Translations under genes and position numbers: made by a program
Origin: Patescibacteria group bacterium
GTDB taxonomy: Bacteria; Patescibacteriota; Minisyncoccia; Phycocordibacterales; PALSA-1337
Length of the DNA: 64,000 bases
Assembly (NCBI GenBank): GCA_018971685.1
Contig: JAGXAG010000005.1
Location: 1,842-65,841, forward strand
Direction: 5' to 3'
The notes under the pieces: model-generated
Told to the model about the DNA's origin: nothing
Seen by the model: only the letters and a program-made list of their open reading frames with translations
The model's database searches: none
Part shown: positions 1,784 to 3,722 of the stretch, one piece after another
Position numbering within the stretch: position 1 is the stretch's first letter
How the letters are laid out: every line of letters begins with the position of its first letter

Positions 1784-3722
1784 TTAAGAGTTTGATCCTA
1801 GCTCAGGATGAACGCTGGCGGCGTGGATAAGGCATGCAAGTCAAGGGGGTCCAACACTGTGTCTTTGAAGATTCGGAAGCGATCAGCTCCGAGGCTCGAA
1901 GATAGAGTGTTGGGCAACCGGCAGACGAGGTAGTAATAAGCATGTATCTCCCCTCGAGTCGGGCATAGCTAGCCGAAAGGTTAGGTAATTCCCGATAGTC
2001 CCGGCGCATATTTCGGTGAAAAATTTATTCATTCTTTACATTGACAAAAATAAACCGCCCTACCCATGAAAGGCAAGGCGGGCGCTCCCGGCTACTATAG
2101 TACTTGGTTTCGGCAAGATCTTTTTTGAAACCGTTATGGTTGCATGTTGCGGCGGTAGATCTTTGCCCGCAGCCTTTGCCAAGGCCAAGGCCAAAACGAA
2201 CGAAAGGCTGAACCAAATTAACAGACAAATGATCACAAGCATAAGTCCTCCTACAAGTTTAAGGTTCCGGGTCATCATAGTAGAATGTCAATGTCAAGTG
2301 TGTGAATAACTCAAAATAAACAGTAATTTTTCTTCGAAATTTGCGCCCGGTAAAGTTTTTCGCTCGAGGACGAGCATGCTCGGTATCAGGTAGTTGGTAG
2401 GGTAACGGCCTACCAAGCCAATGACGCCTAGGGGAGCTGAGAGGCTGACCCCCACCGAGGGCACTGAGACACGGGCCCTACACCTACGGGTGGCTGCAGT
2501 CGAGAATCTTCCGCAATGGGGGAAACCCTGACGGAGCGACGCCGCGTGGAGGATGAAGTACTTCGGTACGTAAACTCCTTTTGCCGGGGACGAAGTCTAT
2601 TGACGGTACCCGGAGAATAAGAGGTTGCTAAACTCGTGCCAGCAGCAGCGGTAATACGAGTGCCTCGAGCGTTATCCGGAATCATTGGGCGTAAAGGGTG
2701 CGTAGGCGGTTCTGTTAGTCTCGCGTAAAATTCTTCGGCTCAACCGGGGGCTCGCGCGAGAAACGGCAGGACTTAGAGGTCGGAAAAGGTCTCTGGAACT
2801 CATGGTGTAGCGGTGAAATGCGTTGATATCATGGGGAACACCGAAAGCGAAGGCAAGAGACTGGTCCGTTCCTGACGCTGTGGCACGAAAGCGTGGGTCG
2901 CGAAAGGGATTAGATACCCCTGTAGTCCACGCCCTAAACGATGATCTCTAGCTTTGAGGAGTATCGACCCTCTTCGAGGCCAAGCTAACGCGATAAGAGA
3001 TCCGCCTGGGTAGTACGATCGCAAGATTGAAACTCAAAGGAATAGACGGGGACTTGCACAAGCGGTGGAACATGTGGTTCAATTCGACGATAAACGAAGA
3101 ACCTTACCAGGTTTAGAAATCCAGACGAAGACTTTTGGAAACAAGAGTCGCCGTAAGGCGGCTGGACAGGTGCTGCATGGCTGTCGTCAGTTCGTGGCTT
3201 GAGCTGTTCCCTTCAGTGGGGTAACGAACGCAACCCTCATTGCCTGTTACAAGTGTCAGGCGAGACCGCCCAGCCCAAAGCATTTTTCGATGTCCGACTT
3301 CTCTGGAGAGGTCGGACCTCAGAAAAATTCTTTGGGCTGGGAGGAAGGTGGGGATGACGCCAAGTCAGCATGGCCCTTTGACGACCTGGGCTACACACGT
3401 GTTACAATCGCGGCTACAACGGGACGCAATGGCGATCGAAGCCGGAGCAAACCCTTATAAAGGCCGCGCCAGTTCGGATTGAGGTCTGCAACTCGACCTC
3501 ATGAAGCCGGAATCGCTAGTAATCGCGGGTCAGCTATACCGCGGTGAATACGTTCTCAAGTCTTGTACTCACCGCCCGTCAAGCTAAGGGAGCCGGGAAT
3601 ACCCGAAGTTCCGCCTCGCGCGGACCTACGGTAAGTTCGGTGACAAGAGCTAAGTCGTAACAAGGCACGGGTAGCGGAAGCTGCTCGTGGAATATTTCAA
3701 GTGAAAACCGTTTCTCCTCCAC
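1784..3722 (+). rRNA. rrs: 16S ribosomal RNA gene with a ~330-nt V2-region insertion and smaller expansions
   Basis: AGAGTTTGATCCTAGCTCAGGATGAACGCTGGCGGCGTG at 1787; GTGCCAGCAGCAGCGGTAATAC near 2637; GGATTAGATACCCCTGTAGTCC near 2907; GCTGCATGGCTGTCGTCAGTTCGTG near 3170; CTACACACGTGTTACAATCG near 3390; GTCGTAACAAGG at 3657 followed by a GGAA-tetraloop helix-45-like hairpin. The 3' end is approximate (plus or minus 30 nt). Confidence 0.92.
2010..2341 (+). other. About 330-nt insertion inside the 16S gene, closed by helix CCGGCGCA/TGCGCCCGG
   Basis: The segment between conserved ...GGTAATTCCCGATAG (ends ~1997) and ...GGTATCAGGTAGTTGGTAGGGTAACGGCCTACC (starts ~2384) is ~390 nt versus ~60 nt in E. 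coli. It is AT-rich and contains the antisense 72-codon ORF 2060-2278. It is too short to encode a homing endonuclease. Confidence 0.55.

Follow-up and report, generated by a model that had tools for sequence, protein, structure and literature searches.

The locus considered here raises the question of what kind of DNA can occupy the middle of a 16S ribosomal RNA (rRNA) gene, and whether such DNA is kept in the mature molecule, removed from it or used as a gene in its own right. The gene in question lies on the plus strand, at positions 1780..3702 of a 64,000-nucleotide (nt) stretch of contig JAGXAG010000005.1 (assembly GCA_018971685.1, Patescibacteria group bacterium), which was analysed at its full length and is referred to below as the window. 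It is of the Patescibacteria/Parcubacteria type and was recognised by cmscan with the Rfam model RF00177 (SSU_rRNA_bacteria; 1307 bits, full model 1-1533). An earlier note on this DNA had pointed to an AT-rich segment of about 330 nt in the V2 region of a 16S gene from a bacterium belonging to the candidate phyla radiation (CPR), and the cmscan alignment places there an insertion of 333 nt (2009-2341), which separates the two strands of a single hairpin. We regard it, with moderate confidence, as an insertion of the intervening sequence (IVS) type in helix 9 of the 16S rRNA, built of two layers and carrying an antisense passenger cassette.

The hairpin that flanks the insertion (CCCGGCGCA / UGCGCCCGG, 2000-2008 / 2342-2350) is the helix which had been named earlier as closing the segment, and it can be identified as helix 9 because the conserved UAAAG comes directly after it. 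At this place, relatives from the same clade have CCC-GCAA-GGG and E. coli has GUC-GCAA-GAC. Compared with the relatives, the GCAA tetraloop has been replaced by the insert, which, when measured in this way, spans approximately 2003-2347. The claimed richness in AT is also real, since the GC content of the insert is 41%, versus 54.5% in the remaining part of the 16S gene and 50% in the window. The sense RNA of the whole segment folds with an energy of -103 kcal/mol (z -3.5). The 16S genes closest to that of the window are 85-90% identical to it. Two further expansions were observed in the same gene: one, of 48 nt, lies in helix 6 (1859-1906), and the other, in the 3' domain (~3262-3340), is a hairpin of some 75 nt at a site which is expanded in all of the relatives compared and is larger in two of them (loci L124 and L128, described below).

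The outer part of the insertion forms, together with the native helix, an extended rod. Its 5' arm (2000..2025, plus strand; GCGCATATTTYGGTGA), which includes the native helix 9 stem at 2000-2002, pairs with the 3' arm (2325..2350, plus strand; TAATTTTTCTTCRAAAT), and across the resulting 26 positions RNAfold predicts 23 base pairs (bp) and three 1x1 mismatches, with an energy of -27.9 kcal/mol for the rod alone. Past the rod there is a 16-nt bulge on the 3' side, after which 2026-2046 pairs with 2286-2308, adding 19 bp more.

The gene order SecD-SecF-ORF6N-16S-tRNA-DUF5671-pyruvate kinase (tRNA, transfer RNA) is shared by lineages that diverge by about 13% in their 16S genes, and the 16S genes of relatives could therefore be reached via homologues of the pyruvate kinase. 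Eight such homologues were traced (P0005-P0010, P0012 and P0037). Complete 16S genes were obtained from L124 and L128 only; for the remaining homologues the synteny was lost, contig ends were reached, or no DNA accompanied the protein. The ORF6N (KilA-N-like) gene lies directly upstream of the 16S promoter, at 1059-1601 in the window and at 3724-4263 in L124.

The comparison with these relatives separated the insertion into two parts of different distribution. In L124 (16S 86.7% identical), helix 9 forms a 24-bp hairpin, CCGAGTGCATATTTTGGTGAGAAAAA-GTATAA-TTTTTCTTCAAAATATGCGCTTGG, which is homologous to the rod of the window, its 5' arm corresponding to 2000..2025; the apical loop has 6 nt in L124 versus 299 nt in the window. 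The 16S gene of L128 (86.0% identical) has an ordinary short helix 9, and neither the rod nor the inner element is present in the syntenic relatives L128 and L057. Altogether, 133 loci were compared, and the rod was found in the window and L124 only, being missing from the other 131. Over the 26 rod pairs of these two sequences, standard pairs make up 92% of the cells. From the window to L124, two pairs are changed on both sides (C2014-G2336 to U-A and G2003-C2347 to A-U), two further pairs are changed compatibly on one side, and two of the mismatches in the rod of the window are standard pairs in L124. The L124 rod contains four G.U pairs and folds more strongly as sense RNA (-27.7 kcal/mol) than as antisense RNA (-18.4 kcal/mol), which argues that the rod is a structure of the rRNA sense strand. 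Since it is inherited, carries compensatory changes and possesses, in L124, G.U pairs that exist in the sense strand only, we consider that the rod acts at the level of the rRNA transcript.

Judged from the alignment, the outer rod is best described as an inherited extension of helix 9, and the inner 299 nt as a later, unique addition within its apical loop. Alternatively, an inner element once present in both lineages may have been lost in L124. It had been foreseen earlier that the segment could prove to be a normal V2 expansion of the lineage; this holds for the outer 26-position rod, which is shared within the lineage, and fails for the inner 299 nt, which are unique.

Every IVS feature that can be tested at the level of sequence is present in this arrangement. 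The small terminal loop (GCAA) of a variable surface helix has been replaced inside an rRNA gene; the borders of the insertion are complementary, with a stem that reaches the length of at least about 20 bp (23 bp with three mismatches, followed by 19 bp); and the insertion is AT-rich and sporadic among relatives. In the course of events that we propose, the tetraloop of helix 9 would have been exchanged for the inherited, nearly perfect rod of 26 positions (the first layer), and a 299-bp AT-rich element of foreign origin would have come to occupy the apical loop of the rod (the second layer), its ends lengthening the duplex to about 45 bp. The whole segment would be transcribed within pre-16S rRNA. 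We infer that, most likely, RNase III cleaves the long duplex, the ends are not religated and the excised RNA is degraded; the 16S rRNA would then consist of two fragments, one of about 225 nt and the other of about 1360 nt, which remain associated in the ribosome. The loop might thus constitute a safe landing place for foreign DNA, because anything located beyond the rod would be discarded. As for the inner element, it may have arrived as, or may derive from, a minus-strand unit composed of a Shine-Dalgarno (SD) motif, an open reading frame (ORF) for a membrane peptide and a Rho-independent terminator. Excision at the rod, viewed as a separate proposition and by analogy with known systems, seems reasonably likely.

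Classical IVSs replace a tetraloop by an extended stem-loop with complementary ends; they are AT-rich, occur sporadically, and are cleaved by RNase III with no subsequent ligation (PMC4990558). The 16S IVSs of Helicobacter and Campylobacter resemble the insertion described here in that they are large AT-rich inserts in V2, with an end stem of about 24 bp, internal stems and loops, and a sporadic occurrence. The IVS of Helicobacter fennelliae, situated at position 175 in H. pylori numbering, has 355 bp (as compared with 333-345 bp in the window), 64.5% AT and a 24-bp terminal stem (PMC3335488), and is thus built almost identically to the insert of the window. It comes from a different phylum, shows no sequence similarity to the insert and has no ORF noted in it, whereas the insert of the window has two layers, an antisense cassette and a presumed excision. 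The 23S IVSs of Coxiella burnetii, Leptospira and Salmonella are excised by RNase III, and some of them carry an S23p / 23S_rRNA_IVP ORF. In common with the insert, they exchange a tetraloop for an extended stem-loop with complementary borders, may contain an ORF that is unexpressed and decaying (as is the ORF of the Coxiella IVS; PMC4990558), and have the character of selfish or neutral elements in the single-copy rRNA gene of a reduced genome. They are located, however, in helices 9, 25 and 45 of 23S rRNA and not in 16S rRNA, and the ORF of the window differs from theirs in being without a PF05635 match, antisense to the rRNA and provided with its own terminator.

Within the CPR, inserts of at least 100 bp occur in 48% of the 16S genes (PMC11270868). 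Their removal from transcripts has been reported (PMC11270868, citing Brown et al. 2015), and those inserts which are neither introns nor carriers of a nuclease have been termed "uncharacterised" and are suspected of being IVSs of the RNase III type (PMC11270868). Our insert agrees with this last group (Tsurumaki et al. 2024; Brown et al. 2015) in clade, in its length of at least 100 bp, and in having no intron signature or homing-endonuclease domain. Most members of the group, however, have been reported as shorter than 200 bp and devoid of ORFs, while the insert of the window, with about 340 bp, is nested and bears gene-like signals on its minus strand. The general phenomenon is well documented in CPR bacteria, and the antisense cassette is the unusual part.

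If the insertion were not excised, mature 16S rRNA would keep the rod and the inner element as a prolongation of helix 9 exposed to the solvent, comparable with the eukaryotic expansion segment ES3S, which arises from the same helix. The tip of helix 9 is located at the surface of the subunit, a position that, from what is generally known of ribosome structure, speaks for such an arrangement. Retention would also agree with the conservation of the rod in L124 with compensatory changes, as is expected of a retained structure, with the folding of the sense RNA, which is better than that of its shuffles (z -3.5), and with the occurrence of other lineage-wide expansions in the same gene (helix 6 and ~3262-3340). 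The inner 299 nt, however, are AT-rich and were found in one genome only, and the best hairpin within them is optimised for the opposite strand, which would be unexpected in a functional rRNA domain. Moreover, transcripts did not contain the CPR rRNA insertions examined so far (PMC11270868, citing Brown et al. 2015), and the 16S IVSs of Helicobacter and Campylobacter are treated as excised by RNase III (PMC3335488, PMC4990558). Retention is thus a possibility to be taken seriously, although we think it unlikely.

Helix 9 was also found to be occupied in other members of the clade. In a survey of about 100 of its 16S genes with the same 515 variant (see below), large inserts in the region of helices 7-10 were present in four. 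The insert occupies the loop of helix 9 in the window and likewise in the three other loci that were inspected (L077, L080 and L088): it is a hairpin of 120-150 nt in L077 and L080, and has about 290 nt in L088, where it encodes a GIY-YIG nuclease on the sense strand (Pfam E = 3e-13). All of these inserts are closed by long stems and are unrelated in sequence, which indicates that the loop of helix 9 is a recurrent and tolerant insertion site. The L088 insert comes close to that of the window in site, size and closing stem, but differs from it in its recognisable sense-strand nuclease ORF.

The L088 nuclease gene, together with the frequency of introns in the 16S genes of CPR bacteria (PMC11270868), raises the possibility that the insertion is a self-splicing intron of group I or II, perhaps a degenerate one from which the homing-endonuclease gene has disappeared. 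An intron fold had been suggested as a check by the earlier note, but the Rfam models of group I and group II introns gave no match to the insert: the scan of 1990-2360 (E<=10, lax filters) yielded no intron family and three chance matches to unrelated families. With the same library, a group II D1-D4 element was recognised in L126, inside its 16S gene. No LAGLIDADG, GIY-YIG or 23S_rRNA_IVP (PF05635) domain was found by Pfam in the three longest ORFs of the insert. The insert, furthermore, replaces the hairpin loop of a variable helix, and GIY-YIG-bearing inserts were never intron-like in the published survey (PMC11270868). An intron is on this evidence highly improbable. The idea of a degenerate GIY-YIG pseudogene was likewise abandoned, as tblastn with the L088 protein revealed no similarity in any frame. 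Other elements of these types do exist in the clade. The 16S genes of L126 and L127 contain the group II D1-D4 element with a LAGLIDADG_1 ORF near the 3' end (L126 783-1391), and L135 carries a free-standing 23S_rRNA_IVP (PF05635) gene (16286-16648) among cell-wall genes, so that this "IVS protein" family also occurs outside rRNA genes in the clade.

Short-read assemblies often break in 16S genes, and the Logan contigs of this organism stop at 1814 and restart at 4579, which makes it necessary to consider an assembly artefact or chimera. Both junctions, however, are located precisely within a hairpin loop, and helix 9 is continued by the two ends of the insert, which are paired with one another; the outer part is homologous to the helix 9 rod of L124, an independent assembly from another sample. 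These two observations together argue that the insertion is not chimeric. In addition, positions 1-7717 of the window are 100% identical to contig JAGWOV010000038.1 of GCA_028870795.1, which is possibly derived from the same data set. An artefact is the least credible of the explanations considered, and even if it is counted together with an intron, the chance that either of them is correct remains very small.

The inner AT-rich element (2026..2324, no strand assigned), defined by alignment with L124, where its place is taken by the 6-nt apical loop, was not found elsewhere: no similar DNA was present in the 133 loci fetched, in the rest of the window, or in plasmids or phages, and a metagenome scan with the 23-mer of the 5' junction gave 0 matches. 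It is bordered by imperfect terminal inverted repeats. The left one (2026..2046, plus strand; TATTCA...ACATTGACA) pairs with 2286-2308 in blocks of 7 + 3 + 9 bp and prolongs the rod; the right one (2286..2308, plus strand; TGTCAATGT...GTGAATA) is followed by 16 unpaired nt (2309-2324). Miniature inverted-repeat transposable elements are characterised by terminal inverted repeats together with a target-site duplication and multiple genomic copies; within the 64-kb window and the 133 loci the inner element occurs in a single copy. The TTGACA (2041-2046) and TACTATAGT (2093-2101) boxes, which had been described as promoter-like, are 46 nt apart, and scanning revealed no plus-strand promoter in the insert. 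We abandoned the promoter reading, given this gap and the nature of TTGACA, which is explained as an arm of the inverted repeat ACATTGACA / TGTCAATGT (2038-2046 / 2286-2294).

All of the antisense gene-like signals of the insertion are confined to this inner element. In the direction of the minus strand they begin with a weak sigma-70-like site (TTCACA-18-TACTAT, 2277..2306; 9/12 match), in which the -10 box and the first ATG of the ORF overlap; matches of this quality are about as frequent in shuffles. An AGGAGG motif (2247..2252, minus strand) is located 4 nt upstream of the internal ATG that forms codon 13 of the ORF, at 2242. The ORF itself (2060..2278, minus strand) encodes 72 amino acids (aa) from the ATG at 2278, or 60 aa from that at 2242. 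As had been noted, its product is hydrophobic; more exactly, the predicted peptide has one strongly hydrophobic N-terminal helix and a tail rich in Pro and Lys. The hairpin reported earlier within the segment was located at 2055-2081, and it belongs to an intrinsic-terminator-like structure (2046..2081, minus strand) in which a stem of 11 bp (2081..2055; 7 G-C), containing the stop codon of the ORF, is followed by UUUAUUUUU. As minus-strand RNA this hairpin folds at -20.2 kcal/mol (z -4.2) and includes three G.U pairs, compared with -10.7 kcal/mol (z -1.0) for the plus strand.

The cassette signals are non-random, although not all to the same degree. Among dinucleotide shuffles of the insert, 12.6% contained an ORF of 72 aa or more, so that the length of the ORF alone is not unusual, whereas 1% had an ORF of 55 aa or more preceded by an AGGAGG-type motif, and 0.6% a hairpin with a T-run of comparable quality. 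These rates, combined with the strand specificity of the hairpin, lead us to conclude that the inner element is by origin a small transcription unit of the minus strand. The frame of the ORF has the best codon score among the six frames; its codon-usage log-likelihood (0.17 per codon) falls between those of coding and non-coding windows, at the 16th percentile of the coding windows and, with respect to non-coding frames, at the 84th.

No homologue of the antisense ORF was detected in a word-indexed search of 5.8 billion clusters, and in viral and metagenome contigs none was found by back-translation scans. A full phmmer search against 1.84 billion representatives gave only two matches, both judged spurious; they were rejected because they involve long repetitive proteins in which 5-9 short repeat matches add up to the score. 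Comparison with Pfam, NCBIfam and PHROGs produced only sub-threshold matches to transmembrane helices, and an exact look-up of the 72-aa and 60-aa products among called genes retrieved no record. In an identical public copy of the locus (L121) the ORF is uncalled, even though the public calls do include ORFs inside 16S genes, such as the LAGLIDADG ORF of L126.

The signals of the cassette do not correspond to those used by its host. The 3' end of the 16S gene (3680-3702) reads GGAAUAUUUCAAG and not GGAUCACCUCCUUA, in the window as well as in the relatives, and is therefore without the CCUCC anti-SD sequence, a loss that has been documented for a subgroup of Parcubacteria (PMC9297842). SD-like 4-mers precede 4.3% of 46 gene starts, versus 7.9% of internal ATGs. 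Instead, 14/29 of the genes that start with ATG possess a TANNNT box whose end lies 6-8 nt ahead of this codon, against a background of about 4%, which indicates that the host uses leaderless messenger RNAs (mRNAs). The -10 box of the antisense ORF, by comparison, overlaps ATG1 and lies 1 nt from ATG2, and ATG13 has no such box before it. In a host without an anti-SD sequence and with leaderless mRNAs, the antisense unit is probably untranslated. An SD motif that the host cannot read, together with the low GC content, points to a foreign origin of the element. In our assessment there is good evidence that the cassette was once a real gene unit, and poor evidence of a present function. The plus strand of the insert at 2247-2252 reads CCUCCU, i.e. 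the anti-SD motif that is missing from the 3' end of the 16S gene; this is probably meaningless, because the host genes are without SD motifs.

The opposite view of the cassette takes the inner element for an active unit of the minus strand, producing a small membrane peptide or an antisense RNA alone. Its transcript would be complementary to pre-rRNA and would be silenced, at high rates of rRNA synthesis, by duplex formation and RNase III, as in a growth-coupled system resembling type I toxin-antitoxin pairs. In its favour, a promoter-like site, AGGAGG with ATG, an ORF and a terminator follow one another in the right order on one strand, an SD-preceded ORF of such length and a hairpin with a T-run are rare in shuffles (1% and 0.6%, respectively), the hairpin is stronger in the minus strand (-20.2 versus -10.7 kcal/mol), and the frame has the best codon score of six. 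The peptide, with 60-72 aa and one transmembrane helix, is of the size of type I toxins, and an abundant RNA would be complementary to its entire mRNA. However, the host 16S rRNA has no anti-SD sequence, and SD-like motifs are rarer than background (4.3% versus 7.9%); the antisense ORF does not fit the host pattern of a -10 box 6-8 nt before the ATG; the promoter match (9/12) is at the chance rate; and the codon score reaches only the 16th percentile of real coding windows. To this can be added the absence of an ORF homologue from the 5.8 billion clusters, the 1.84 billion representatives and the viral or metagenome contigs, and of an ORF call in L121, although the public calls for L126 include a LAGLIDADG ORF inside the 16S gene. 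The similarity to type I systems is a resemblance only: homology to toxin families is lacking, the expression signals are unfit for the host, and the "antitoxin" would have to be the pre-rRNA. A working antisense gene is therefore improbable. More doubtful still is the combined scheme in which a live gene resides inside an rRNA IVS and its RNA escapes the duplex and RNase III only when rRNA transcription falls, the rRNA precursor serving as an antitoxin or growth-sensing switch.

Several points weigh against the interpretation of the insertion as a two-layered IVS with a silent passenger. The covariation of the rod comes from two sequences and is not significant, as the observed score was reached by 123/500 shuffles. 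Excision is argued solely by analogy with other IVSs, and the 64-kb window, when searched for the RNase III signature motif, gave no match, a result that is uninformative for the whole genome and leaves the nuclease unconfirmed. An intact ORF of 72 codons and a perfect terminator could reflect selection for expression. Finally, no target-site duplication is visible in the sequence, and the 64-kb window and the 133 loci contain no second copy of the inner element; for this reason its mobility and foreign origin have to be argued from its GC content (41%, versus 50% in the window) and from the SD motif that the host cannot use.

The locus demonstrates that some, at least, of the "uncharacterised" 16S insertions of CPR bacteria are layered: an inherited helix, whether for processing or as an extension, can act as a landing pad for foreign DNA that arrives later, and this would explain how a single-copy 16S gene can tolerate a passenger of 300 bp. 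ORFs in such inserts should be checked against the initiation signals of their host (here leaderless, with no anti-SD sequence) before they are annotated as genes. Were the antisense unit active after all, which the evidence does not favour, it would couple a gene to the synthesis of rRNA in a novel manner.

The insertion has a practical aspect as well, because the extra 340 bp in V2, combined with a mismatch to primer 515F, will cause amplicon studies to miss or mis-size such 16S genes. The 515F primer site (2636..2654, plus strand) reads GTGCCAGCAGCAGCGGTAA, with an A (2647) at E. coli position 526 that is paired to a U (2626) at position 505. The variant CAGCAGCGG, to which attention had been drawn earlier as a peculiarity of this gene, is real but clade-wide: it is present in at least 120 genomes, mostly of Parcubacteria/Paceibacteria, and in the 530-loop pseudoknot the change to A526 is compensated by U505.

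Downstream of the 16S gene, the 64 kb contain neither a 23S nor a 5S gene, and the rRNA genes appear to be unlinked. The region directly downstream of the 16S gene (3702-4614) contains a hairpin with a T-run (~3914-3945), a promoter-like site (3947-3975) and another ORF of 72 aa (3984-4202), followed by the genes of tRNA-Leu(CAG) and tRNA-Ile(GAU).

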